From Patescibacteria group bacterium (GTDB lineage Bacteria; Patescibacteriota; Patescibacteriia; UBA1558; GWA2-36-10): DNA of 64,000 nucleotides. Of the stretch, positions 2,880 through 60,521 are shown one piece after another. The position numbers and the translations under genes were made by a program. Position 1 is the first letter of the stretch. The number at the start of each line of letters is the position of its first letter. Location: contig JAQUKX010000003.1 in the NCBI GenBank assembly GCA_028718865.1, positions 33,214 through 97,213 on the forward strand, read 5' to 3'. Under the pieces are notes generated by a model. That model ran no database searches, was not told where the DNA came from, and saw only the letters and a list, made by a program, of their open reading frames with translations.

Positions 2880-3060
2880 TGTCATCTCACGCTTTCCCTT
2901 CTGTTATTCCCGTCCCCACCTTCGCGGGGATAAACTCCAGCGGCTTGCCTGCTGACAGGCAGGGAATCTGGTCTTTCTCTTTCGTCATTCCCTCGAAAGC
3001 GGGAATCTACTTTGAGATAAAGAAAAGCTAGATTCCGGCTCGGAGGCCGGAATGACAAAA
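2880..3060. repeat. Cluster of modular hairpin repeats (GTCATTCC-N-GGAATCTAG family).
   Basis: Concatenated ~25-30 bp palindromic modules, e.g. TCCCCACCTTCGCGGGGA, GTCATTCCCTCGAAAGCGGGAATCTA and TTCCGGCTCGGAGGCCGGAATGAC. The same modules recur at 5765-5965, 6925-7140 and 7500-7650 in shuffled order and in both orientations. Confidence 0.7.
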
Positions 3061-3065
3061 AGATA

Positions 3066-5764: not shown

Positions 5765-5965
5765 TTGGAAGTGATTTTCTTTGTCATTCCGATTCCGCCT
5801 GCGCCTGTGGGCTTCGGCGGACAAGCGAGACGAGTGAAACGAGGCGAGTGGAGGAATCTAGTTTTTTCTTTTCGTCATTCCGGCCCCCGAGCCGGAATCT
5901 AGTCTTTCCTTATCTCAAAGTAGATTCCCGCTTTCGCGGGAATGACGAAATAAAAATAATCGTCA
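5765..5965. repeat. Modular hairpin repeat cluster (same family as 2880-3060).
   Basis: Contains TTCGTCATTCCGGCCCCCGAGCCGGAATCTAGTCTTTCCTTATCTCAAAGTAGATTCCCGCTTTCGCGGGAATGACGAAATAAAAA. About 110 bp (5851-5960) reappears identically at 7041-7140. Confidence 0.75.
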
Positions 5966-6133: not shown

Positions 6134-6820
6134 TCAGGAAACTGACTGACGAGCGCGCAGAAAGCCAACGGCAAAGCCAGGAAAGAACCAGCCGACGCGG
6201 AGCCTGCCATTGCCAGCAAGCCAGAAGACGCACGGCACGCCGCCATCGCGGCCGCGCGAACCGGCGCAGAGAGTCCAGTTCTGGACATCAAGATGCTCGT
6301 TGGTCTCCGAGAAATACTTGAGCTCGTAGACCAGCCGCTCGAGCAGAGTCATGGCGTTGACGCCCTGCTGACGAAGCTTGTTGGCCGACAGATTTTTAAG
6401 TTCCTCGTCGGCCTCCACCCGCTCGCGAATCCGAATCGCGTAGTTGCAATCCGAGACACGAACGTTATCAATGACGTCCTTGTCCAGGTCGTCGATGTAG
6501 CTCGACACCGGAAAACACTTCTTCATGGCCTTGAGCACATCGTTGAGCTTCAACCCCTTGGGGATGAAGATGACGCGGTCAAAACCGCCGGCGTTGTCGG
6601 GGATCGAGGCATCGGAGAAGCTCACCGACAAGCGGAAGTACTTGCGGTAGAACTCCTGCCACTCGGACTGAATGTCGGAAATGGCGAAGGGATTCTGACG
6701 CTGGAGGAAAAGCTCCAGCTCTCGCACGGTGATCACACCGTGCTGCAGCTTGTGCATCAGGTCTGCCAGCAAGCCAAGCACTTTGCTCGGCAAGCTACCG
6801 ATCACTTGCTTCTTGCTCAT
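6134..6820 (-). CDS. DGR variable (target) protein, remote paralogue of 24717-25400. GC-rich with a C-terminal variable region.
   Basis: 228 aa and about 65% identical to the 24717-25400 product (shared NPFAISDIQSEWQEFYRKYF...GGFDRVIFIPKGLKLNDVL...RARQSVS). Its C-terminal ~35 codons align to the TR at 25687-25802, with most differences at TR adenines. It has its own TTGACA promoter and GAAAGGAA SD at 6822-6900 and an intrinsic terminator at 6010-6060. Confidence 0.75.
   Translation of the reverse strand: MSKKQVIGSLPSKVLGLLADLMHKLQHGVITVRELELFLQRQNPFAISDIQSEWQEFYRKYFRLSVSFSDASIPDNAGGFDRVIFIPKGLKLNDVLKAMKKCFPVSSYIDDLDKDVIDNVRVSDCNYAIRIRERVEADEELKNLSANKLRQQGVNAMTLLERLVYELKYFSETNEHLDVQNWTLCAGSRGRDGGVPCVFWLAGNGRLRVGWFFPGFAVGFLRARQSVS
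6146..6262 (-). other. DGR variable region VR2 at the 3' end of the remote target gene.
   Basis: Minus-strand sequence GGTTCGCGCGGCCGCGATGGCGGCGTGCCGTGCGTC...CTGCGCGCTCGTCAG aligns along its length with the TR. The 3' 15 nt (CTGCGCGCTCGTCAG, an IMH-like invariant) are identical. Substitutions are mostly at TR A positions, plus a few non-A changes. Confidence 0.7.
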
Positions 6821-6924
6821 GATCAGTTTCCTTTCATGTAAAGGTTCTAGGTATTACCTCGGCCAATTCCGAAGTAATGTATAAGCATAGCTATATTTAC
6901 TATTTTGTCAATGTTTTGGAGTTG

Positions 6925-7140
6925 TCATTCCCGCGAAGGCGGGAATCTAGCCTCTTTTTGGTTCAAAGTAGATTTCTCGACTACGCTCGAAATGACAGAA
7001 GGGAAAGGCTAGATCCCGCAATCCGCCAGCTGGCGGACGAGTGGAGGAATCTAGTTTTTTCTTTTCGTCATTCCGGCCCCCGAGCCGGAATCTAGTCTTT
7101 CCTTATCTCAAAGTAGATTCCCGCTTTCGCGGGAATGACG
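6925..7140. repeat. Modular hairpin repeat cluster.
   Basis: Modules GTCATTCCCGCGAAGGCGGGAATCTAG and others, plus the exact ~110-bp copy of 5851-5960. It flanks the remote DGR target on the opposite side to the 5765-5965 cluster. Confidence 0.75.
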
Positions 7141-7221
7141 AAATAAAAAATCATGGTTTGACATTTGACAATTAGCATGCTATGATACCCCCATAGGGTA
7201 TAATGATATTTATTTAAAACA

Positions 7222-7482: not shown

Positions 7483-7499
7483 AAAAGTTTAGAAATTAA

Positions 7500-7650
7500 C
7501 TAGATTCCCGCTTTCGCGGGAATGACAGAAGGGAAAGGCTAGATTCCCTGCCTACCGGTCTTCGACTCCGAGGTCGCTCAGACTTGAGGAGCAGGCAGGT
7601 CGCTGGAGCTTATCCCCGCGAAGGTGGGGACGGGAATGACATAAATAACA
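7500..7650. repeat. Modular hairpin repeat cluster.
   Basis: TAGATTCCCGCTTTCGCGGGAATGAC ... CCCCGCGAAGGTGGGGACGGGAATGAC. It is an inverted arrangement of the modules seen at 2880-3060. Confidence 0.7.
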
Positions 7651-20799: not shown

Positions 20800-21080
20800 A
20801 ATAAATGCTCTTAGGGGATGAGGGAAGCGTGGGCTTCCCTCTGAGGAAGTATAGTACTGACCATGAGTTGGTCAGTTATTTCTCCTGCGGAAAAGTCGAT
20901 GGAGAAAATTGTGCCTTTTTCTCGGTGGCATGCAAGGAATGGGCGGACCGAGGTAGCCGAGCATACGCTGGTCAGCTCTCCGTGAGTACTCCTGTGCGAG
21001 ACGGAGGTAATTACGAGAAACCGCACCCTGTTTTTTCATAAGAAAACCTTTCCTGTTGGAGGTGAACGAACGTGGTCATC
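20800..21080. ncRNA. GC-rich (~55%) structured element with 12-bp terminal inverted repeats; candidate ncRNA of unknown class.
   Basis: CTTAGGGGATGA...TCATCCCCTAAG termini. Internal hairpins include GGGAAGC/GCTTCCC, CTGACCA/TGGTCAG, GAGAAAA/TTTTCTC and CTCCGT...ACGGAG. The two overlapping track ORFs here (20805..21041 plus, 20811..21026 minus) are mutually exclusive and are most likely artefacts of GC richness. Confidence 0.3.
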
Positions 21081-21340: not shown

Positions 21341-22045
21341 TTAGTTGTTTTTTAATACACAAGCATTGTTTGATCTATAGTATCCAGAGTTACATGTCCA
21401 ACCATTGCCTAAATAATTTAAGCTAGCATTTGTTGGAGGCTGAACTTTTATACAACTATTGTTTGATCTATAAAAACCATAATCACATGTCCAACCGTTA
21501 CCTAGGTAATTTAATTTTGCATTTGCAGGAACATCGACAGCTACACAAGCATTGTTTGATCTATAGTATCCAGAGTTACATGTCCAACCATTGCCTAAAT
21601 AATTTAAGCTAGCATTTGTTGGAACAATGATAGTTTTTTTAGCGCTAAGATTTTGGTTTGTGGTATTTAAGTTTATACTTGAGCCGGAGTTTTTATTTTC
21701 ATATAATGATTTTCCTACGTAGTAGTCTGGGTCCGTTGTCCAAGTTGGCGTGTCCCAAGTTGATCCTTTTGTTCCGTAAGTTTTATTATATAAACCTTGG
21801 GATGATGTCCAGCTATAATTGTCATATTTTAATCCATTTGGATTACTACGAACATGTGGTTGGACATATGTGCCATTGCTTCTGTAGTAGCCTTTTACTG
21901 AAACATATGCGTCAGCATTGTTTATAAAAGTAGTTGAGCCAATAATTACTACTAAGGTAAAAATAGCTATAAATTTTTTGAATAAATTTTTCATAGTTTT
22001 GATAATAATATTTAGTATATTACCATAAAATTGTATTATTGTCAA
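21341..22045 (-). CDS. Secreted repeat protein with three ~31-aa Cys-containing tandem repeats (cassette ORF).
   Basis: Signal peptide; repeats P[TA]NA[SK]LNYLGNGWTC[ND][SY]G[YF]YRSNN[AS]C[VI]. The underlying 93-bp DNA repeats at 21350-21620 are nearly identical. Confidence 0.6.
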   Translation of the reverse strand: MTIIQFYGNILNIIIKTMKNLFKKFIAIFTLVVIIGSTTFINNADAYVSVKGYYRSNGTYVQPHVRSNPNGLKYDNYSWTSSQGLYNKTYGTKGSTWDTPTWTTDPDYYVGKSLYENKNSGSSINLNTTNQNLSAKKTIIVPTNASLNYLGNGWTCNSGYYRSNNACVAVDVPANAKLNYLGNGWTCDYGFYRSNNSCIKVQPPTNASLNYLGNGWTCNSGYYRSNNACVLKNN

Positions 22046-22327: not shown

Positions 22328-22618
22328 GTGAAGAAAGTCGTTCTTATCATCATCGCGATCTTCGCGCTCCTGCTCGTTTCCGGTTGCGCCGGGACCAATT
22401 CGGTTCAGAACACGCCTGGTAGCAATGGCGTGGCTGGGTTCTGGTCTGGCCTCTGGCACGGCATGATCGCGCCGATCAGCTGGTTAATCTCCCTCTTCAA
22501 CTCCAACGTGAACATCTACGAGGTTCACAACAACGGTGGCTGGTACGACTTTGGTTTCGTGCTTGGCGCCGGGATTCTGGCCAGAGGGAGCCGATCCTCA
22601 CGTAGGCGCGAGCACTGA
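22328..22618 (+). CDS. Small GC-rich (~60%) lipoprotein; a self-contained expression unit inverted relative to neighbouring cassettes.
   Basis: MKKVVLIIIAIFALLLVSGCAG lipobox, GTG start with a strong SD, and a terminator hairpin ACTAGTTGTCCCTAACAACTAGTTTTCTTTT at 22630-22665. Confidence 0.6.
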   Translation: MKKVVLIIIAIFALLLVSGCAGTNSVQNTPGSNGVAGFWSGLWHGMIAPISWLISLFNSNVNIYEVHNNGGWYDFGFVLGAGILARGSRSSRRREH

Positions 22619-24328: not shown

Positions 24329-24617
24329 TTTCCTCTTTTACAATTAATTGATTTCTTATTTATTAAGCTATCGTAAGGTGCCCACAAATTAGGAGATGGT
24401 GGTCAGGGGTTACAAATTCCAAATTAATTACAGATAACACACCAGGATATCTGAAGTTGCCGAATAAATATCCGTGATAGAATAATTATAACATCACGGA
24501 TATTTAGAGGCAATTTGTAGTGGAACTCAAGAAAAAATAGAGCATAGTATAAAAATGGCCAAAATCAGATAAAAGTATATAAATTTTACCTAATATTAGC
24601 CAATATTTGCCATTTAT

Positions 24618-24716
24618 GCTTGACAGATTGTGGTATATATGGTATCATTATATATTACTTTGGGAATAAGCCTGAAGTAAGTACCTGAACAAAGTTTCAA
24701 TGAAAGGAAGCTGGTC
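24618..24716 (+). promoter_or_regulatory. Promoter and SD of the DGR target gene.
   Basis: GCTTGACAGATTGTGGTATATATGGTATCATTATAT (TTGACA ... TATCAT/TATAT) and the SD GAAAGGAAGCTGGTC-ATG. Confidence 0.5.
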
Positions 24717-25400
24717 ATGAGCAAGACGCAAGTGGTCGGCACGATGTCCGAATGGTCGGGCATTATCCGCGACATGTTCCGTCAGTTCGACGACGGCTCG
24801 TTGACCCTGGCTCACGCCAAGGCCTTCACCGAGCATCGGAACCCTTTCGCCATTTCGGACATCCAGTCCGAGTGGCAGGAGTTCTACCGCAAGTACTTCC
24901 GCATCAGCGTGGACTTCTCGGATGTCTCGATTCCTGCCGATCCCGGTGGCTTTGACCGCGTCATCTTCATCCCCAAGGGGTTGAAGCTCAACGATGTGCT
25001 CAGGGCCATCCGCAAGCAGTTCCCGGCTTGGAGCTACGAGGAGGATCTGGACAAGGACGTCATCGAGAACATCCGCAAGTCGGATCGCAACTACGCGATT
25101 CTGATTCGCGAGCGGGTGGAGGCCGATGAAGAGCTCAAGAACATCTCGGCCAACCAGCTGAAACAGCAGGGCGTCAACGCCATCACCCTGCTGGAGCGTC
25201 TGGTACTCGAGCTGAAGTACTGGTCCGAGACCGGCCAGCATCTCGATGTCAGCAACATCACCCTGTGCGCCGGTTCGCGCAGCCGCTTTGGTAGCGTGCC
25301 GAACGTCGACTGGAGCGCTGACTGCGGCAAGCTCCACATCTACTGGTTCAGCACTGGCCGTGCCAATGGCCGTCTGCGCGCTCGTCAGTCAGTTTCCTAA
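24717..25400 (+). CDS. DGR variable (target) protein with a C-terminal variable region; GC-rich (~60%).
   Basis: 227 aa. The last ~35 codons (…GSVPNVDWSADCGKLHIYWFSTGRANGRLRARQSVS) are encoded by the VR, which matches the TR at 25687-25802 except at TR adenines. The antisense track ORFs 24648..25337, 24752..24955, 25091..25339 and 25246..25434 are artefacts. Confidence 0.85.
   Translation: MSKTQVVGTMSEWSGIIRDMFRQFDDGSLTLAHAKAFTEHRNPFAISDIQSEWQEFYRKYFRISVDFSDVSIPADPGGFDRVIFIPKGLKLNDVLRAIRKQFPAWSYEEDLDKDVIENIRKSDRNYAILIRERVEADEELKNISANQLKQQGVNAITLLERLVLELKYWSETGQHLDVSNITLCAGSRSRFGSVPNVDWSADCGKLHIYWFSTGRANGRLRARQSVS
25271..25388 (+). other. DGR variable region VR1.
   Basis: 118 nt aligned to the TR with 16 substitutions, all at TR adenine positions (A>G ×10, A>T ×5, A>C ×1). 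A GC hairpin TCACCTCTTTCCCTTGAGGTGA lies just downstream of the IMH-like 3' end CTGCGCGCTCGTCAG. Confidence 0.85.
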
Positions 25401-25686
25401 CACTTCCAACTTTCACCTCTTTCCCTTGAGGTGAGATAGGAGTGTGCAATCACGCCCCGTGTGTGTCAATTCGTTTGACGCCCGGGGCTTTCTTTTTATA
25501 TAATAATCTCGGCTAATACAATCGGTCTTGATTTTTCAGGATAGCGATTTGCCATTTCTTTGGAAACTGCTTGTTAAGTTCTGGCTGGATTAAGTCCACA
25601 CATATTACAAACTCTTTGAAGTTTGACGATTAGTAATATTTATTTAATATCACTCGTCGGCCAAGATGGAATTTAGCAAAAATTGG

Positions 25687-25802
25687 GTTCGCGCAACCGC
25701 AATGGTAACGTGCCGAACGTCAACTGGAACGCTGACAACGGCAAGCTCCACATCAACTGGTACAACACTGACAATGCCAATGACCATCTGCGCGCTCGTC
25801 AG
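25687..25802 (+). other. DGR template region (TR).
   Basis: GGTTCGCGCAACCGCAATGGTAACGTGCCGAACGTCAACTGGAACGCTGACAACGGCAAGCTCCACATCAACTGGTACAACACTGACAATGCCAATGACCATCTGCGCGCTCGTCAG. It is rich in AAC codons, non-coding in context, and located just upstream of avd/RT. The track ORF 25666..26085 over it is spurious. Confidence 0.85.
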
Positions 25803-25838
25803 AAGTTTTCGACAAAAAAGTCCCGTTTTTACTCGGGA

Positions 25839-26198
25839 CTATTTGTTTAAATATTTTATCCACCCGCTCGCCATTTTCGAAATTTGCATCATTTTTTCAG
25901 CTAGGAGTAGGTATTTTTTGTCAGCGATTATTTTTAATTCCCACATTAGTCTAGTCAATCTTTTTGCTACTTCAATTTGTATCTTCAGTTTGGCAACCAC
26001 CACAGATTTTTTATCTCTAGCGGTCAAAGCCGCCAGTGTTCCTAATTCCAAACAATCAATGATAATATTTTCAATTTTTTGGTAAAGCCCAAAGCGTTCC
26101 ATTTTGGCAATTTGTTTTCGTCTGGTGTATAATTCCCGATATAAAGTAGTAAGCTCATGAATTATCGGCAAGCTAACATCGTTGGGGGGGGTAAACAT
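25839..26198 (-). CDS. avd: Avd-like accessory protein (four-helix-bundle family), tentative.
   Basis: 119 aa, basic/helical (…LYRELYTRRKQIAKMERFGLYQKIENIIIDCLELG…). Size and position between the TR and RT fit Avd. It is on the opposite strand and overlaps the RT start by ~40 nt. Confidence 0.45.
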   Translation of the reverse strand: MFTPPNDVSLPIIHELTTLYRELYTRRKQIAKMERFGLYQKIENIIIDCLELGTLAALTARDKKSVVVAKLKIQIEVAKRLTRLMWELKIIADKKYLLLAEKMMQISKMASGWIKYLNK

Positions 26199-27158
26199 AG
26201 TAGTCTTTTTTTAAAAATTATTTCTTTAGATAATTTGCTTTTATCATGGCGAGAATTTAAGCGTGGTAAAGCCACAAGGCGTGATATTCAGCAGTTTGCC
26301 TTTAATTTGGAAGAAAATATTTTTTGTCTTCACAAAGAGCTTGAAAATATGACGTATTGCCACAGTCCTTATCAGTCATTTTTCATCCAAGATCCAAAAA
26401 CTAGGCATATTCATAAGGCTGGCGTCAAAGATAGAGTTGTCCACCAAGCTTTATTTAGAGTATTATATCATTATTTTGATAAGAAGTTTATTTTTGATTC
26501 ATATTCTTGCAGGCTAAAGAAAGGTAATCATAAGGCTGTCTATCGCTTGGATAAGTTGATAAGAAAGGCCAGCCTTGATTATCAAAAACCAGTTTTTGCC
26601 TTAAAGTGCGATATCAGAAAATTTTTTGCCAACGTTGACCAAAAAATATTATTGTCTTTATTACAAAAAACTATTAAAGACCAAGATACTCTTTGGCTAG
26701 TTAAAAAAATTATTGATAGTTTTACATGTAGTCAAAATAAAGGTTTGCCTCTGGGCAATGTTACTAGTCAATTATTTTCCAATATTTATCTTAATGAGCT
26801 TGATTATTTTGTAAAACATACTTTAAGGCAAAAGTTTTATATCAGATATTGCGATGATTTTATTATTTTACATCAAGACAAAAAATATTTAGAAAATTTA
26901 GTTGCCACTTTAGCTAATTTTTTGCAAGCTAGACTAAAGTTAGATTTGCACCCTAATAAAATAACAATAAGGAAAGTAAATCAAGGTGTGGACTTTTTAG
27001 GTTATGTGGCTTTGACACGCTATCGAGTGTTGAGGACAAAAACAAAGAAGAGAATTTTGCGTCTTGCCAGTAGTAAAAATTTACAGTCTTATCTAGGAGT
27101 ATTACATCATGCCAATGCTTATGAATTAAAGCAGGTATTGATAAAAAAGATTGTTTAG
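26157..27158 (+). CDS. DGR-type reverse transcriptase.
   Basis: 333 aa; RT motifs HKAGVKDRVVHQAL (motif 2), LPLGNVTSQLFSNIYLNELD (DGR-specific [I/L]GxxxSQ in motif 4), RYCDDFII (YxDD) and GVDFLGY. Confidence 0.85.
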   Translation: MNYRQANIVGGGKHSSLFLKIISLDNLLLSWREFKRGKATRRDIQQFAFNLEENIFCLHKELENMTYCHSPYQSFFIQDPKTRHIHKAGVKDRVVHQALFRVLYHYFDKKFIFDSYSCRLKKGNHKAVYRLDKLIRKASLDYQKPVFALKCDIRKFFANVDQKILLSLLQKTIKDQDTLWLVKKIIDSFTCSQNKGLPLGNVTSQLFSNIYLNELDYFVKHTLRQKFYIRYCDDFIILHQDKKYLENLVATLANFLQARLKLDLHPNKITIRKVNQGVDFLGYVALTRYRVLRTKTKKRILRLASSKNLQSYLGVLHHANAYELKQVLIKKIV

Positions 27159-27299
27159 TTTTTTATATAATAGATAGCTCTATTTTTTCTTGAGTTCCAC
27201 CAGATATCCGGTGATAGACGATGTCACGACTATATAAAAAAACAAAAAAGTTTAGAAAAATATCTAAACTCTTTTTATTTGTATGAGTATTATTTTAGT

Positions 27300-27545
27300 A
27301 TGCAAGTAGTCGTGATTTCTGTCTATCAGTCGTGCGTATGCGACGTCCCGAAACGAGCTTTGCGGTAAAATAGTGCGGAGCACATCGCAAAGGCGAGTAG
27401 AGGGATGTAGGCTAAAGCTCACACATACTAAAAGAATAAAATTAAAAGTGCCTAAGCTAATTTAAGCACTTTTAACTATAAATTTCAAATGTAGTATAGG
27501 TGTAAGCTAAGCCGCATACGCGGTGTTGTGCGCTGTAATAAAGTC
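27300..27545. repeat. Compact complete cassette site (L half plus central hairpin plus R half).
   Basis: CGTGCGTATGCGACGTCCCGAAACGAGC ... GAGTAGAGGGATGTAGGC ... AAAAGTGCCTAAGCTAATTTAAGCACTTTT ... GCCGCATACGCGGTGTTGTGCGCTG. Confidence 0.65.
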
Positions 27546-29430: not shown

Positions 29431-29853
29431 ATGAAGCGCATGACCTACGTTCTTTCGATCGTGATCCTGCTGATCTCGTCCATGGCCTTCGCGGCCAGCC
29501 ACCCCATCGTCAACAAGGACGACACCGCCAAGGTTCCGAGCTGGGACTGGGTCGACGTCCTGAACCAGGAAGTCGTCTACAGCGGCAACAACGAGTTCAC
29601 CTACGGCGAGACCTGCGGCATCGAGTGCGGCGGCACCGTGACCGTCATCGGCGAGGTCGACGAGGGCAACGTCCTGGTACGCTACACCAGTCCCCATGGC
29701 CAGACCTACGGTACGCCTTGTCCCTCCGGCATCATCTTCCAGCTCTCCAAGGAGCGCTTCACGCTGATGACGGCGGAGTACCTGGCCAACATGAAGGCCG
29801 AGCAGGAGCACCGGCAGAAGATCGCCAACATCATCAAGGAAGCCGAAGGCTAG
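29431..29853 (+). CDS. GC-rich (~62%) secreted protein; inverted self-contained unit.
   Basis: Signal peptide MKRMTYVLSIVILLISSMAFAAS. Upstream TTGACA at 29327 and SD CTCAGGAGGTTACTACACC-ATG. Terminator TGAGCAAGTCATAAAACTGCTCACTCTTTTTTT. The overlapping track ORFs 29397..29873 and 29413..29877 are GC artefacts. Confidence 0.65.
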   Translation: MKRMTYVLSIVILLISSMAFAASHPIVNKDDTAKVPSWDWVDVLNQEVVYSGNNEFTYGETCGIECGGTVTVIGEVDEGNVLVRYTSPHGQTYGTPCPSGIIFQLSKERFTLMTAEYLANMKAEQEHRQKIANIIKEAEG

Positions 29854-38331: not shown

Positions 38332-38859
38332 ATGACGGCCAAGAATGCTGTCGCCGACGATGTCCTCGGACGGATCACTCGTAAGCTTCTGGACTTGTTG
38401 CGTCGAATCCTTGAGGGTTCGGTGGAAACCACTCGGGCCTCATTCTTCATCCAGCGTGCAATCGAGAATCCGCCGACCCCCAAGACCCCCGGTCCGGGAG
38501 AAGCGGGCATCTACGTACTCGAGAGCTACTGGTGCTACGACAAGGCGAACTACGATTTCGCTACGATCAGCTTGGAGTGGGGTGGTGAGCCTACTTGGTT
38601 TTTCGAAGATCTTCTCAAGGAAGACATCTCGGAGGACGCTAGGGGCTTTTTGCTGCGCACGCTTCGGCGGATTTACGAAGCGCAGATCCCAGATCATGGT
38701 CGGCGGAGGATGATGCGGCTCTATCGCGTCTCTTACCGCAATTGTCTGGGAAATTTCGAGGGTTCTCTGGGTCGTCCACTTCGTGACCTTCATTTCTCGC
38801 TTGAGCCTGTTTGTGAGTTCGACGAACAAGGCGAACCCCTTCCCGTCGGAACACTGTAG
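38332..38859 (+). CDS. GC-rich (~58%) hypothetical protein; inverted self-contained unit.
   Basis: 175 aa, no signal peptide. The overlapping ORFs 38345..38713, 38440..38871, 38639..39028 and 38328..38510 are GC artefacts. Confidence 0.55.
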   Translation: MTAKNAVADDVLGRITRKLLDLLRRILEGSVETTRASFFIQRAIENPPTPKTPGPGEAGIYVLESYWCYDKANYDFATISLEWGGEPTWFFEDLLKEDISEDARGFLLRTLRRIYEAQIPDHGRRRMMRLYRVSYRNCLGNFEGSLGRPLRDLHFSLEPVCEFDEQGEPLPVGTL

Positions 38860-39248: not shown

Positions 39249-40502
39249 TTATGCCCCAAAAGCAAATATTTGTTGTTGTGAATATGTGGGTTCTTCTATT
39301 TCTTCTTCAATCTCACCATTTAACATTTTTATTAAGTTGGTACCTATGTGATAGCCAAGATTTACTGGCACGGCATTGCCAATTTGTTTATATTGTTGAG
39401 AAACTGAGCCAGAAAATTTCCAATTGTCTGGGAATGTTTGTATTCTTGCATATTCTCTCACAGTGAGAGGCCTTGTTTCTTCTGGGTGACATCTCTCTGT
39501 TTGTTTTTGTGCGGGGCTACAAGTTAAAGTCAATGAAGGTTCATCCCAAGATAGTCTTCTTGCCATTCCAGTTTTGCCACCGCCCATATAAAAACTTGCC
39601 CCCATGTATTCTTTCTGTAAGTTTTCCGGTAAATCTCTCCAATATCCACCTGGTGGTATAAGTTTTAGAATTTTTTTCTTTTTTTCAGGGTACTCTTGTC
39701 CTTCAGATTTTGGACATTTATCAAAAGCTTCTCGTAGTGAAATTATATAGTCTTTTTCTTTTGGGAATACTATCGGAATATTTAGATCATTTCTAACGCC
39801 TATAATAATTAGACGCTCTCTTTTTTGCGGAACATCTAAATATTGGGAACGGAGGACTTTGTATTTTACCTTATAACCAATTTCTTCTAAAACAGAAATC
39901 ATAGTTTTTAAAGTTCTTCCATTATCATGAGTTAGTAAGCCCCGCACATTTTCACCAATAGCTATTTTTGGCTGTACTTCTTTTACACATCTGGCAAATT
40001 CAAAAAACAATGTTCCTCTGATATCTTCAAAACCCATTTTTCTTCCAGCGTATGAAAAAGTTTGACAAGGAAAGCCGCCCTGGACAATATCAGCTTGTCC
40101 TTTTGTAAATTTTAAATTACGAATGTCATCTTCAATTACATTCCAATGAGGTTTGTTTATTCTTAAAGTTTGGCAGGCGTGTTTATCATATTCATTTAAT
40201 AGAACGTGTTGAATGCCCGCATTTTCCATTCCTAATGCAGTGCCCCCAGCTCCAGCAAATAACTCAATAGCGGTGTAAGGGGATGATTCTTTATTTTTTA
40301 AAATTTTAAATTTATTGCTTTTGGTTCCTTGTGTTTTATTTTGTACCCGTTTGATTTCTTCTAAGCTAAAAATGCGGGCATTTTTGTCATCCCTAAAAGA
40401 TTTTACAAGGCCTCTTTTGTCCCAACGCCTTATTGTATCGACTGAAATGTTTAGTAGATTTGCTGTTTGACCAGCAGTAAAATGTTTTTGTTTATTTTTC
40501 AT
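39249..40502 (-). CDS. DNA (cytosine-5)-methyltransferase with an N-terminal MerR-like HTH.
   Basis: 417 aa; N-terminal QTANLLNISVDTIRRWDKRGLV; MTase motifs LFAGAGG (I), GFPCQTFSYAGR (IV), ENVRGL (VI), QIGNAVPV (X). Confidence 0.85.
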   Translation of the reverse strand: MKNKQKHFTAGQTANLLNISVDTIRRWDKRGLVKSFRDDKNARIFSLEEIKRVQNKTQGTKSNKFKILKNKESSPYTAIELFAGAGGTALGMENAGIQHVLLNEYDKHACQTLRINKPHWNVIEDDIRNLKFTKGQADIVQGGFPCQTFSYAGRKMGFEDIRGTLFFEFARCVKEVQPKIAIGENVRGLLTHDNGRTLKTMISVLEEIGYKVKYKVLRSQYLDVPQKRERLIIIGVRNDLNIPIVFPKEKDYIISLREAFDKCPKSEGQEYPEKKKKILKLIPPGGYWRDLPENLQKEYMGASFYMGGGKTGMARRLSWDEPSLTLTCSPAQKQTERCHPEETRPLTVREYARIQTFPDNWKFSGSVSQQYKQIGNAVPVNLGYHIGTNLIKMLNGEIEEEIEEPTYSQQQIFAFGA

Positions 40503-40567
40503 ATAAAAAATGATAGAGGATATCTATCATTAGTATATCATAATAACCACTGCCTATGCAAAGGTTA

Positions 40568-41275
40568 TTATGTGGAAAAAGCCATTTGGAATAATTTAAA
40601 GTATTCCCTCATTTCTTTTTGGCTAAGATTATATTTATGTTTGTCCATTATAACCTTTGGCAATACTTCAAATAATTCTTGTAGAGCCTTTTCTCTTCCG
40701 GTTGCCAGCGCATAAAAACTAACGCCATCTATAACTCTTATTTTATTGTTGGAAGGGCGGCGTTTTCCATTCTTTTTATTATCTGAAGGCACGAAGGGCT
40801 TGTCATATTTTTTCTTTCCTTGTGGTATGATCTCTACAAAGTAACCAGTATAACCACTATATCTTTCCATTTTTAATTTTGATTTTATTGAATCATAAAT
40901 CTCAACTTTATGGTTGCCTTTTGTAGTATTAAATTTATTTTTTACTTCCGCAATAATTTTCATTTTTTCATTTATGACGTCTAAGCCGCCCCCTTTACCT
41001 AAATTTTGCCAGTCATTAACAGAACCTAAAATATCTTGGTGAAAATCACCAATAGCATTTTGCATTGTTTTTTGAATTTGTCTAGCTTTTTCTAATTCCA
41101 GCCAGTCTTTACAAGATATTGAGTGAGTTACACCATGAAACAAGGCCGAAAAAGGGTCTATTACATTTTTATACAATTTTTTTTCTGCGTCATTTTCTGC
41201 AGCATCTATTACTGTAATAACTTTTTTTACTGCAGCGCATAGATCTTTGTCTGATATAAATTTTAGATAAGGCAT
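40568..41275 (-). CDS. Candidate type II restriction endonuclease, partner of the C5-MTase.
   Basis: 235 aa directly downstream of the MTase in the same cassette. Possible PD-(D/E)xK arrangement GLDVINEKMKIIAEVK. Assignment is by context only. Confidence 0.4.
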   Translation of the reverse strand: MPYLKFISDKDLCAAVKKVITVIDAAENDAEKKLYKNVIDPFSALFHGVTHSISCKDWLELEKARQIQKTMQNAIGDFHQDILGSVNDWQNLGKGGGLDVINEKMKIIAEVKNKFNTTKGNHKVEIYDSIKSKLKMERYSGYTGYFVEIIPQGKKKYDKPFVPSDNKKNGKRRPSNNKIRVIDGVSFYALATGREKALQELFEVLPKVIMDKHKYNLSQKEMREYFKLFQMAFST

Positions 41276-42864: not shown

Positions 42865-42966
42865 TAAGATTGACAGAATGTAGTATTTATGATATAATAC
42901 ACTATTCGCCAAAAATAGACTAATTCTGGCTATTGGCGTGTACACCACAGTCAGGAGGTAAGAAAG
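42865..42966 (+). promoter_or_regulatory. Consensus promoter and SD for 42967-43266.
   Basis: GATTGACAGAATGTAGTATTTATGATATAATAC (TTGACA-N17-TATAAT) and AGTCAGGAGGTAAGAAAG-ATG. Confidence 0.55.
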
Positions 42967-43266
42967 ATGTACGGACCTCTTTTTCAAATCAGTGACGAGC
43001 TCGTTTGGAAGGACGAGCCTGCCCCAGGGCACGAAGAGGCTGGCCCCTTCAAGGTGGCCACTGTCGAGAACAACAACGACCCTGATGCTTGCGTATGCGG
43101 TGCATCCCGCAAGAACGGTTACATTCACTACGACGACGTCGAAGAAGGTGACTGCTGCGGTGAACTGCCGGCACAGTGGGTGACGATCACCTGCAACGGG
43201 ATCATCGTCAAGAACCGTGATGGCTCTGACGCCGTCTTCTGCTCTGACTGGTTCCGCAAGGCCTGA
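42967..43266 (+). CDS. Small GC-rich (~58%) Cys-rich protein; the cassette nearest the recombinase, inverted.
   Basis: 99 aa with 7 Cys (CVCG...CCGE...C...C). A palindrome CCCGGGTTAGAATAGGGTCTC follows the stop. The ORF 42992..43183 is spurious. Confidence 0.55.
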   Translation: MYGPLFQISDELVWKDEPAPGHEEAGPFKVATVENNNDPDACVCGASRKNGYIHYDDVEEGDCCGELPAQWVTITCNGIIVKNRDGSDAVFCSDWFRKA

Positions 43267-43377: not shown

Positions 43378-43466
43378 AATTCGATTTCATACAACAGCTT
43401 GTTTGTGCACCTATTGACAGTTTAGCCAATATCAGCCAACATGTAAATAGATATCATTAATCACAA
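43378..43466. promoter_or_regulatory. Terminal L-type site plus candidate attI / recombinase promoter region.
   Basis: TTCATACAACAGCTTGTTTGTGCACCTATTGACAG... immediately upstream of the recombinase gene. It is the last site of the array. Confidence 0.4.
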
Positions 43467-44366
43467 ATGCTTATGAAGAAAAGCAATTTGTCCCGTTTTC
43501 CACGGGATATTGAGAGCAAGTCTCGTTTTTTAATTGATCTGTCAACTGGTCATCCTCTGGCCAATCTGGTCCAAGAGCTCATTATCAGAGGATTTTCTCG
43601 TCGTACTATCAAAAGCTATTTGTCGCAGAACCAGCGATTTTTGGACTGGTTAGGCTCTTCAGCAAAAGAAGTCAGTTCTCAAGACATCAAAAATTATCTG
43701 CTTTATCTAAAATCTCAAGGCCAGAGCAATACTTCTCTCAACCAGACTATTTCCGCTCTAAAATTTTATTACAGCCAAATCTTAAAGAGGAAGCTGTTTT
43801 TTAATATCAAGCGGCCAAAAAAAGAAAAATTTTTACCGGTGGTTTTGACCAGAAATGAAGTTATAAAAATTATCAATGCTTCTTCTAATTTAAAACATAA
43901 ACTACTTTTGTCTTTACTCTATGGCTCAGGACTAAGAGTGTCTGAAGTAGTCAAAATAAAAATCAGTCATTTGGATCTAGCTAGCAAAAGCTTGTTGGTC
44001 AAAGATAGCAAAGGCGCCAAAGATAGATATACATTATTAAGTGGTATTAGCTTGAAATTTTTAAATTTATACTTAGCACGATTGCCACGGGAGCAAAAAT
44101 ATTTGTTTGCCGGTCAGTCGGAACAAAGCCGATTAAGTCAGCGTAGTGCTCAAAAAATATTTGAGCATGCTTTGGAAAAGTCCGGCTTAAAAAAAGAAGC
44201 GTCTTGCCATAGTTTGCGTCATTCTTTTGCCACGCACCTCTTAGAAAAGGGAGTAGACATCCGCCATATTCAAAAATTATTAGGCCATCAGAATATCAAG
44301 ACTACTGAAATCTATACTCAAGTAGTCAGAGATTTTTGGCAGGGCATCAGGAGTCCTTTGGATTAG
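43467..44366 (+). CDS. Tyrosine site-specific recombinase with an IntI-like C-terminus (integron-integrase-like).
   Basis: 299 aa; catalytic R...HxxR...Y (SLRHSFATHLLEKGVDIRHIQKLLGHQNIKTTEIYTQVVRDFWQGIRSPLD). The ending GIRSPLD parallels GVRSPLD of IntI1. Its length is Xer-like, so the IntI-specific extra domain may be absent; this is not resolved. Confidence 0.7.
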   Translation: MLMKKSNLSRFPRDIESKSRFLIDLSTGHPLANLVQELIIRGFSRRTIKSYLSQNQRFLDWLGSSAKEVSSQDIKNYLLYLKSQGQSNTSLNQTISALKFYYSQILKRKLFFNIKRPKKEKFLPVVLTRNEVIKIINASSNLKHKLLLSLLYGSGLRVSEVVKIKISHLDLASKSLLVKDSKGAKDRYTLLSGISLKFLNLYLARLPREQKYLFAGQSEQSRLSQRSAQKIFEHALEKSGLKKEASCHSLRHSFATHLLEKGVDIRHIQKLLGHQNIKTTEIYTQVVRDFWQGIRSPLD

Positions 44367-58025: not shown

Positions 58026-59605
<1,580 letters not shown>

Positions 59606-59816
59606 AGGAGTTATTTGTCGGCAATCCTCACGATTGACCGATAGTCGACCTTCCCTTTTTGGGAAGGAAATAGGCTAAAAACCTTCACTTCTAAGTTATT
59701 AAAATATTACCCCGCTAGCAGCGGGGTCTTTTATTAAAAAGGCTATTACTTCTTGTCAAAAATTAGTTTTTCTGTTATTATCCCCCTTGTTATGAAATTT
59801 TAAATTATTGTTTTTA

Positions 59817-59893
59817 GGGCATGTAGCTCAGCTGGTTAGAGCACTACACTGATAATGTAGGGGTCGGAGGTTCGAGTCCTCCCATGCCCACCA
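59817..59893 (+). tRNA. tRNA-Ile (anticodon GAT).
   Basis: GGGCATGTAGCTCAGCTGGTTAGAGCACTACACTGATAATGTAGGGGTCGGAGGTTCGAGTCCTCCCATGCCCACCA. Confidence 0.85.
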
Positions 59894-59966
59894 GGAATAA
59901 TTGTGTAATAGCACAATTGTTAATTGATGAGTGCTATTAACTTATTAATCAATTATGCAATTAAGC

Positions 59967-60051
<85 letters not shown>

Positions 60052-60074
60052 TAAAACATTCGCTTCGCTCAGGT

Positions 60075-60260
60075 TTATGGCGCAACCATTATATTTACAT
60101 CTGGTAGCGCCGTGAACTCGAGTCGCAAAGCGACGAGTAGTTCACGGGGTGTGGCGCCCGCGCCCGGTACGCCTACGGCGATAGCCGTGGCGGACGGGCA
60201 GTTTTCGCCAAAGACGAACCAGCCTCTGGCTGGTGCTAGCGTAAACGCATCATAAAACAA
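60075..60260. other. GC-rich (~62%) structured non-coding element inside the tRNA cluster.
   Basis: Long hairpin CCGTGAACTCGAGTCGCAAAGCGACGAGTAGTTCACGG, palindrome GGCGCCCGCGCC and hairpin CCAGCCTCTGGCTGG. A 5S-like GGCGATAGCCGTGGCGG motif is present, but the overall order does not fit 5S. The track ORF 60075..60260 minus is spurious. Confidence 0.3.
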
Positions 60261-60289
60261 ATATAAATTGTAATTTAATAAATTAACTT

Positions 60290-60366
60290 CGGGGTGTGGC
60301 GCAGTTGGCTAGCGCGCGTGCTTTGGGAGCATGAGGTCGGAGGTTCGAGTCCTCTCACCCCGACCA
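60290..60366 (+). tRNA. tRNA-Pro (anticodon TGG).
   Basis: CGGGGTGTGGCGCAGTTGGCTAGCGCGCGTGCTTTGGGAGCATGAGGTCGGAGGTTCGAGTCCTCTCACCCCGACCA. Confidence 0.85.
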
Positions 60367-60445
60367 ATTTAATACAATAGTTTAATAGCGTAATAGAATA
60401 ATTGCTATTAACCTATTAATCAATTATACAATTCTCAATTAGTTC

Positions 60446-60521
60446 GCGGGTGTCGTATAGTGGCTCATTATGTCAGCCTTCCAAGCTGAAGAGGGCGGTT
60501 CGATTCCGCTCACCCGCTCCA
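60446..60521 (+). tRNA. tRNA-Gly (anticodon TCC).
   Basis: GCGGGTGTCGTATAGTGGCTCATTATGTCAGCCTTCCAAGCTGAAGAGGGCGGTTCGATTCCGCTCACCCGCTCCA. Confidence 0.85.

Follow-up and report, generated by a model that had tools for sequence, protein, structure and literature searches.

The window analysed here is a stretch of 64,000 nucleotides from a Patescibacteria group bacterium (GenBank assembly GCA_028718865.1, contig JAQUKX010000003.1, positions 33,214 to 97,213 of the forward strand), and all positions are counted from its first letter. It carries what is very probably a complete chromosomal diversity-generating retroelement (DGR) of the architecture typical of the candidate phyla radiation (CPR), which probably still diversifies one target gene and has, at least formerly, diversified a second. 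The core of the element consists of the following genes and repeats.

24717-25400, plus strand: target gene 1, 227 aa, with a helical N-terminal part and a C-type-lectin-like C-terminal domain
25272-25388, plus strand: first variable repeat (VR1), 117 nt, with 16 differences from the template repeat
25374-25388, plus strand: invariant 15-mer CTGCGCGCTCGTCAG, like an initiation of mutagenic homing (IMH) site, identical in the template repeat and VR1
25389-25397, plus strand: VR-specific flank TCAGTTTCC, directly after the 15-mer of VR1
25686-25802, plus strand: template repeat (TR), 117 nt, with 33 adenines, 11 AAY codons and 21 variable codons
25802-25809, plus strand: 3′ flank of the TR, GAAGTTTT, IMH*-like, beginning at the last base common to TR and VR
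25839-26198, minus strand: avd, coding for a basic protein of 119 aa (pI 9.8)
26104-26133, plus strand: promoter-like site for the reverse transcriptase gene, inside avd (11/12 matches)
26157-27158, plus strand: DGR reverse transcriptase (RT), 333 aa, with LGNVTSQ and YCDD motifs

An ungapped scan of the region gave a single best register for the two repeats, at an offset of 414 nt. All 16 mismatches between TR and VR1 are located at adenines of the TR (ten A>G, five A>T and one A>C) and none at C, G or T, for which the hypergeometric probability is 5.8e-11, given 33 adenines in 117 nt. This pattern, the abundance of AAC-type codons in the TR and the invariant 15-nt 3′ end had been noticed in an initial annotation of the stretch, and all three are borne out. 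The repeat pair proposed there is also confirmed, at 117 nt, with the correction that the TR starts at 25686 and not at 25687; position 25271/25685 (C/G) lies outside the repeat. VR1 specifies residues 186-224 of the 227 in target 1, and each of the 16 changes falls on codon position 1 or 2 of that gene. The third codon positions of the TR hold zero adenines, a stop codon can be reached from just one of its variable codons, and the 21 variable codons allow about 10^19.5 possible peptides.

The 15-mer CTGCGCGCTCGTCAG occurs only three times in the window, the third copy closing the VR of a remote second target gene (VR2). It is followed by TCAGTTTCC in the VR and by AAGTTTTCG in the TR, which is the relationship between an IMH and an IMH* site, and these may be their respective functions. 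Among 26 tabulated loci of related elements, the 8-mer after the repeat differs between TR and VR in 26/26, as would be expected of the IMH*/IMH distinction.

The RT matches Pfam RVT_1. Among solved structures it comes closest to the 328-aa chain 8ub7_A (E 3.6e-37), some 20 orders of magnitude ahead of the RTs of group II introns and retrons (about 1e-16). This chain appears to be the Bordetella RT (bRT), judging by the cryo-EM preprint and by its own length and motifs (IGSLTSQ and YMDD). The LGNVTSQ and YCDD motifs first reported for the window RT are indeed present; the nearest solved chain, however, reads IGSLTSQ and not IGNLTSQ as had been stated. An arginine is kept at the position aligning with R74 of bRT, and a leucine is found at that aligning with I181. 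The replacement of the group II motif QGxxxSP by [ILV]GxxxSQ, together with YxDD, would assign the enzyme to the DGR group. It scores below the NCBIfam cutoffs of the group II (TIGR04416, 146 vs 300 bits), Drt (74 vs 200 bits) and retron (NF038233, 60 vs 235 bits) models, and a search of the element against Rfam, both at the gathering threshold and with E up to 5, returned chance-level matches only and no intron or retron RNA. Group II intron or retron identity of the RT was rejected on these sub-cutoff scores and on the lack of intron domains or msr/msd RNA, in agreement with its original classification. A search of proteins from phage records yielded 145 RTs with 33-41% identity over more than 90% of the length of the window RT, including those of ANMV-1, Vibrio phage VP585, crAss-like phages and five Bordetella phage records.

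The 119-aa basic product that had been called Avd-like, encoded on the opposite strand between TR and RT, matches PF22296, the Pfam family of bAvd (E 2.3e-8, 100/107 profile positions), and the NCBIfam Avd model NF033474 (E 2e-10, full model length), in both cases below the curated cutoffs. Its orthologues from related loci all match PF22296 (24/24, best E 1e-18), and 14 of them match PF05635. Transcription of avd and RT diverges, with 42 nt (26157-26198) common to the 5′ ends of the two coding regions; related loci, among them L005 and L007, keep this overlap, which requires each promoter to lie inside the other gene.

A scan for relatives, restricted to one genome per species, returned 79 loci. 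About 33 of these have the same order of target, TR, reversed avd and RT, with overlapping avd and RT starts, while the remainder are lone target genes. A TR was found in about 30 loci, with the differences at adenines in nearly all (for instance 20/20, 22/22, 23/23 and 24/24). The architecture known as B3, TR-(avd)-RT, accounts for about 90% of the CPR DGR set (Wu et al. 2018, PMC5758913), and DGR clade 2 is restricted to Patescibacteria (Roux et al. 2021, PMC8144416). By its gene order, its reversed avd and its Patescibacteria host, the window DGR would belong to B3 and to clade 2, and the element itself is therefore ordinary for its host group. The initial annotation had likewise held that DGRs are common in CPR. 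It had also called the element complete, and the adenine-only TR/VR differences, a DGR RT, a protein of the Avd family, a target with a lectin fold and an IMH-like end have all been found.

Comparison with L005, which lies in another Patescibacteria genome, reveals identities of 91% for the RNA 5′ domain, 91.5% for the TR, 90% for avd, 87% for the RT, 90-95% for the cassette flanks, 74% for the target outside the VR and 72% for the VR; the RNA domain, promoters and terminators are at least 90% conserved. The VRs of the two loci differ at 23/33 of the TR adenine sites and at 10/84 of the other sites (Fisher P 2e-9), and their TRs differ at 10/117 positions. That VR1 shows zero non-adenine differences while the TRs diverge points to recent homogenisation of VR1 by the TR. 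The dN/dS ratio in the VR is 1.3 between the window and L005 and 2.7 between targets 1 and 2; it is 0.26-0.49 for the rest of the target, 0.21 for avd and 0.09 for the RT. The VR shows low synonymous divergence, which fits with repeated resetting by the TR. These comparisons suggest that the DGR is probably still active on target 1. The initial annotation went too far in reading the repeat pattern as the hallmark of active mutagenic retrohoming.

Target genes and their 3′ flanks

The two target genes, the second of which lies far from the element and has no RT of its own, are accompanied by the following features.

24620-24648, plus strand: promoter-like site of target gene 1 (TTGACA-17-TATCAT with TG; 11/12 matches)
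25401-25427, plus strand: run of four repeats containing CTT, 6-9 nt apart, immediately behind the stop codon of target gene 1
25413-25434, plus strand: hairpin TCACCTC-TTTCCCTT-GAGGTGA, downstream of VR1 and overlapping the CTT repeats
25454-25497, plus strand: terminator-like hairpin of target gene 1 (GCCCCG...CGGGGC and a T run), with the -35 box of the TR RNA promoter in its loop
6134-6820, minus strand: target gene 2, 228 aa, 67% identical to target 1, G+C content at third codon positions (GC3) 0.77
6146-6262, minus strand: VR2, at the 3′ end of target gene 2, with 33 differences from the TR

Target 1, whose promoter region is 93% identical to that of the L005 cassette, has no match in Pfam, NCBIfam or PDB sequences. 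Its C-terminal half models as a C-type-lectin-like fold (AlphaFold2, pLDDT 91.8), the type of fold that had been expected of it, and a Foldseek search of this model against the PDB gave nothing significant. As modelled, target 1 would be a variable protein of the lectin type that displays its VR residues, as is typical of DGR targets. The family comprises 208 homologues of about 227 aa, and all those with a source name are from Patescibacteria or its candidate phyla. Conservation extends over the body of these proteins, and the C-terminal 40 residues combine a fixed scaffold with hypervariable positions. The first approximately 45 residues exist in two versions, M-SEWSG...DGSLT and LPGKVLG...HGVIT (24717-24860 and 6680-6820 in the window, and the family alignment). 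Both versions occur intermixed among otherwise alike proteins, and targets 1 and 2 carry different ones, which suggests recombination between target genes.

The G+C content of target gene 1 is 0.59, against lower values in its surroundings and still poorer ones in the RT gene (0.36 and 0.31); the genome stands at about 0.36. Likewise, GC3 is 0.83 in target gene 1 and 0.26 in the RT gene. This is also true for the relatives, where the G+C content of the target exceeds that of its flanks in 70/74 loci (mean +9 points, P 3e-13), that of the RT lies below its flanks in 26/27, and target GC3 exceeds RT GC3 in 31/31. Avoidance of adenine was considered as the cause of the high G+C content and rejected: A and T are equally frequent, and equally depleted, on the coding strand of the target, so that simple adenine avoidance is no explanation.

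Across the family, the 3′ flanks of the target genes contain three to five degenerate CTT repeats, 7-8 nt apart, followed by a terminator hairpin. The repeats are present behind most target genes, whether RT-linked or lone, and no such block follows the TR. At least three CTT triplets occur in the first 40 nt of 58/77 target 3′ flanks, against 3.5% of 733 control open reading frame (ORF) flanks from the same loci. Pairs of CTT at a distance of 7-9 nt number 126 in the 77 target flanks, against 12.8 +/- 3.1 in shuffles, which corresponds to 1.64 per sequence, against 0.05 in other ORF flanks. The hairpin at 25413-25434 is built from part of the CTT block and is kept in L005 and L003; in most relatives a terminator hairpin takes its place. 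This is the hairpin that had been described as a GC hairpin following the VR; its existence is confirmed, with just 4/7 G+C in the stem. The position of the CTT block makes it the counterpart of the distal part of the Bordetella IMH and its spacing to the downstream hairpin, and we conjecture that the repeats may act in target recognition.

In VR2, 28/33 of the differences from the TR lie at adenines, that is, 28/33 TR adenines are changed (P 5.4e-17). The five non-adenine differences are scattered along the repeat, and three of them match the TR base of L005. This is most simply explained if the last rewriting of VR2 used an earlier state of the TR and that of VR1 came after the TR had gained those changes. 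Partial conversion from the 3′ end was rejected as the source of the five differences, which spread over the whole repeat and three of which match another TR. On the 3′ side of VR2 a 33-nt hairpin is inserted after the stop codon and just a stump of the CTT block is left. Taken together, the repeats indicate that the DGR targets two small proteins with a predicted lectin fold, the second at least in the past. Target gene 2 lies amid palindromic repeats of one family (GTCATTCCCGCGAAGGCGGGAATCTAG-like; 2899-3063, 5845-5956, 6923-6974, 7038-7149 and 7498-7644), two of which, at 5845-5956 and 7038-7149, are perfect 112-nt direct copies that bracket the gene.

The DGR RNA

Between target gene 1 and avd, the TR is embedded in the following RNA features.

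25475-25504, plus strand: promoter-like site of the TR RNA (TTGACG-18-TATAAT), with its -35 box in the terminator loop of target gene 1
25511-25685, plus strand: structured 5′ domain of the DGR RNA, about 175 nt, strongly conserved and with covariation
25511-25553, plus strand: helices P1 and P2
25571-25581 with 25669-25679, plus strand: helix P3, enclosing the inner hairpins P4-P6
25563-25581, plus strand: continuous strand GAAACTGC-TTGTTAAGTTC, the 3′ part of which forms P3 and the 5′ 8-mer of which is complementary to the TR/VR flank
25819-25840, both strands: bidirectional terminator-like hairpin, common to the TR RNA (plus) and the convergent avd (minus)

The -10 box TATAAT (25499-25504) follows a T run and in the relatives is kept 6-7 nt before GGCU. 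A hairpin is found at the terminator site in nearly all of the 26 relatives checked (it is not evident in L056), and its sequence differs in each. From these signals the TR is predicted to be a transcription unit of its own, with promoter and terminator.

The structure of the 5′ domain was assessed with 40 pairs in a MAFFT alignment of 26 loci and 500 shuffles; the inner hairpins P4 and P5, being out of register in the alignment, were left out of the pair test. The proportion of paired cells is 91.1%, compared to 78.6 +/- 0.6% in the shuffles, and drops to 30-52% when the 3′ partners are slid out of register. Twenty-seven pairs are changed on both sides (16.8 in shuffles), as are 163 cells (45 in shuffles), and 0/500 shuffles reached any of the observed values. 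Covariation is seen in helices P1, P2, P3 and P6. The best supported of these is P3, where 10/11 pairs change on both sides and the 3′ arm ends six bases before the TR. The frequent G-U pairs of the domain are compatible with the plus strand only. Rfam contains no match to this domain 5′ of the TR, even with E up to 5.

The 8-mer GAAACTGC has its complement in the TR flank GAAGTTTT. Among the relatives, the nearly invariant GAAACUGC is located directly 5′ of the P3 strand and complements the 8-mer starting at the last base shared by TR and VR; the TR/VR homology stops exactly at the edge of the proposed duplex. Its complementarity to the TR flank (usually GAAGUUUC) averages 6.8 of 8 positions, and that to the VR flank (usually GCAGUUUC or GUAGUUUC) 7.4 of 8. 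Matching changes are observed in three lineages, namely GAAACUAC/GUAG, GACACUGC/GAAGUGUC and GGAACUGC/GUGGUUCC. These data are suggestive of a real helix between GAAACUGC and the TR flank. In the Bordetella phage BPP-1, the spacer (Sp) downstream of the TR forms adjacent duplexes with the 3′ end of the TR, which is the priming site, and with a segment just upstream of the TR (bioRxiv 10.1101/2023.10.23.563531). By analogy, the strand GAAACUGC-UUGUUAAGUUC would play the part of this spacer and pair with both flanks of the TR, and the VR flank together with the CTT repeats would mark the recipient.

The recombinase array

The DGR is situated within an array of small units, for which these features are relevant.

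24434-24543, no strand: left end of the mobile unit, with core ATAACA (24434-24439), box CCAGGATATCTG (24442-24453), a small hairpin and an inverted-repeat arm (24513-24543)
27177-27329, no strand: right end of the mobile unit, with an inverted-repeat arm (27177-27207) and box CAGATATCCGG (27201-27211)
27211-27329, no strand: attC-like hairpin of the DGR unit, about 120 nt, ending in TCTATCAG, with DNA fold z-scores of -5.6 and -6.0
43383-44366, plus strand: attI-like junction (...ATACAA, then CAGCTTGTTTGTGCACC) with the gene of a tyrosine recombinase (43467-44366), heading the cassette array

The 2.9-kb unit 24436-27329, which contains further inverted repeats, 24-31 nt long, on either side of the DGR, matches positions 4556-7447 of L005 with 85% identity, and at either end this homology breaks off within the core. 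The L005 copy abuts CAGCTTGTTTGTGCACC and the recombinase gene. The window has this junction sequence too, at 43397, with the DGR unit 16 kb away from the junction and the recombinase gene. The more distant DGR of L007 is also the first unit beside a recombinase. The location of the DGR inside a cassette array, already proposed in the initial annotation, is thereby confirmed, and judging from these boundaries the whole DGR with its target behaves as one mobile cassette.

The array extends over about 19.6-43.4 kb (19582-43420), is low in G+C (GC3 approximately 0.2) and holds some 25 units. Its genes are divided by sites that consist of the cores ACAACAG / TGTTGTG and paired inner boxes, with orientation alternating from core to core. 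Every unit, regardless of length, is closed by terminal inverted repeats of its own, and some of these repeat pairs have genes between their arms. The hairpins have z-scores of -5.6 to -8.3, and some are up to 240 nt long. The cargo includes an Eco47II-type restriction enzyme and a C5 methylase (39249-41275), as well as NUDIX, GNAT, EamA, SDR, HD, serine hydrolase and Fic genes. The head of the array adjoins genes for tRNA-Leu and tRNA-Val. The recombinase passes the XerA/integron integrase model NF040815 (234.9 bits, cutoff 220) and scores below the cutoff of the integron integrase model TIGR02249 (205.6 bits, cutoff 265), the latter match being in two stretches; its PDB matches are XerA (7e-43) and, again in two stretches, IntI4 (3.9e-39), the lengths being 299 aa for the recombinase and 320 aa for IntI4. 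In its anatomy the array would thus be integron-like yet atypical, since alternating cores and genes between repeat arms are not those of a classical integron. A search of the available literature gave nothing relevant on integrons in CPR/Patescibacteria or on DGRs as integron cassettes.

Five small G+C-rich ORFs (GC 0.51-0.60) are present in the AT-rich array, all on the plus strand (20805-21041, 22328-22618, 29431-29853, 38332-38859 and 42968-43266); most other array genes are encoded on the minus strand. For at least one of the five there is a separate promoter-like site (42871-42899), and the start of one resembles a signal peptide. ORF 21341-22045 (minus strand) contains three 93-nt tandem repeats of a Cys-rich unit (NASLNYLGNGWTCNSGYYRSNNACV) after a signal-peptide-like start. 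Elsewhere in the window, 58026-60521 holds a 16S rRNA gene followed by genes for tRNA-Ile, Phe, Pro and Gly, and no 23S rRNA match was seen in the 4.4 kb of the window that remain.

Interpretation and comparison with known systems

By analogy with the BPP-1 model, an RNA of about 340 nt would be transcribed from its own promoter, starting near 25511 and ending at the hairpin 25819-25840, with the 117-nt TR preceded by the structured 5′ domain and followed by a short 3′ flank. The RT with Avd would copy the TR into cDNA, misincorporating opposite adenines, and this cDNA would replace VR1 of target 1 and, at least in the past, the VR of 6134-6820. Each replacement would recode 21 codons on the surface of the C-type-lectin-like domain.

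Several observations weigh against this account. The window Avd lies below the curated cutoffs of both of its models (34.9 vs 40 and 40.8 vs 80 bits), and a profile of the 24 Avd orthologues, when compared with PDB sequences, matched no solved structure. The helix between GAAACUGC and the TR flank is 78% paired, with one pair changed on both sides, and contains a G-A mismatch in 20/26 aligned loci. An exact-match scan of metagenome contigs for the IMH and its flank gave no other VR copy, and VR2, with its five non-adenine differences and truncated CTT block, may no longer be a recipient. The lack of variant VR copies in the metagenome collection, together with the three VR2 differences that match an older TR state seen in L005, would also suit a fossil DGR, in which the adenine pattern is the record of past homing and nothing is diversified now. 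We consider this unlikely, given that the RT, avd and both target ORFs are intact with the catalytic YCDD present, that TR and VR1 show zero non-adenine differences, that the RNA domain, promoters and terminators are conserved to at least 90% with L005, and that the RT is under strong purifying selection (dN/dS 0.09). There is next to no chance that the repeat pair is an ordinary partial gene duplication with an RT of the group II intron, retron or defence class nearby. The NCBIfam matches of the RT are to group II intron, Drt and retron models alone, NCBIfam being seemingly without a DGR RT model. All of these scores are far below their cutoffs, adenine-only differences have a P of about 6e-11 in VR1 and 5e-17 in VR2, Rfam revealed no intron or retron RNA family, and about 33 genomes have RT, Avd, TR and target linked in this way.

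A different question is what moves the units of the array. The pdif modules of Acinetobacter plasmids are flanked by sites in alternating orientation, and the array could similarly be a set of modules exchanged by the housekeeping Xer system at dif-like sites, with the DGR as one module and nothing integron-like about it. We hold this to be possible, if rather doubtful. It would fit the recombinase, which passes only the XerA/integron-integrase model, fails the integron-integrase model, has XerA as its best solved relative and is shorter than IntI4; it would also fit the alternating cores and the terminal inverted repeats that each inter-core segment possesses. Against it, the unit common to the window and L005 has cores of like orientation at its two ends and lies against a conserved junction beside the recombinase gene, as integron cassettes do at attI, and the short elements fold as long imperfect hairpins closed by cores, in the manner of attC sites.

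A further proposal can be put forward tentatively, and we think it less likely than not to hold. The CPR-class DGR RNA might be a circular permutation of that of Bordetella, with the clamping strand 5′ of the TR; the better fit of GAAACUGC to the VR flank, together with the CTT repeats, might help RNA-linked cDNA choose the VR; and the whole system might move between genomes as a recombinase-dependent cassette. If this is true, DGR cDNA would be guided to its target by RNA. As one more example of a well-catalogued class, the window DGR has its value in the comparison of its family, which bears on the priming of DGR cDNA in systems other than that of Bordetella and on recognition of and entry into the VR. 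Three short and conserved elements of the family, linked to one another, lend themselves to mutation in a reconstituted system, namely the covarying RNA domain, the flank-complementary 8-mer and the repeat block, which occurs after target genes only. The family also shows that a complete hypermutation system and its target can ride as a cassette on a recombinase-served array in very small genomes, and such carriage would explain the spread of DGRs among CPR lineages.

The CPR B3 and clade 2 DGRs (PMC5758913, PMC8144416) resemble the window DGR in host group, gene order, reversed avd, chromosomal location and a small target without recognisable domains or transmembrane segments, and there is no essential difference from them. 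Neither a lectin-like target model, nor an RNA domain 5′ of the TR, nor CTT repeats, nor a cassette context was found in these two papers; as far as could be checked, the last three of these have not been described. The window target has no sequence-level relation to Treponema denticola TvpA, Thermus TaqVP or Legionella Lcl/LdtA and, unlike these, lacks a lipoprotein signal and an FGE-sulfatase Pfam match, Foldseek likewise giving none. With integrons (intI, attI, attC) the array shares an IntI4-related tyrosine recombinase (E 3.9e-39) at the end of a promoter-poor gene array, imperfect palindromes that fold as hairpins between the genes, and the occurrence of the same 2.9-kb unit deep in one array and first after an attI-like junction in another. 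It differs in that the recombinase is about 20 residues shorter than IntI4 and fails the integron-integrase model, that cargo, including the DGR, lies between the arms of an inverted-repeat pair, and that the hairpin of the DGR cassette is on its recombinase-proximal side.

The DGR of phage BPP-1 (mtd-avd-TR-brt) is alike in its adenine-specific transfer from TR to VR, its Avd partner, the C-terminal VR in a target with a C-type-lectin fold, and an RT with [ILV]GxxxSQ, Y(M/C)DD and an arginine aligning with R74. It also has the invariant IMH-like end with a differing flank and the hairpin downstream of the VR. In contrast to BPP-1, the avd gene of the window is inverted and overlaps the RT start, and the TR RNA has its own promoter and terminator. 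The target is a cytoplasmic-looking protein of 227 aa and not a phage tail fibre, and there is a second, remote target. The structured RNA is located 5′ rather than 3′ of the TR, which is followed by only about 45 nt; a single strand is placed for both partners in the same 5′-to-3′ order as in BPP-1, but upstream of the TR.

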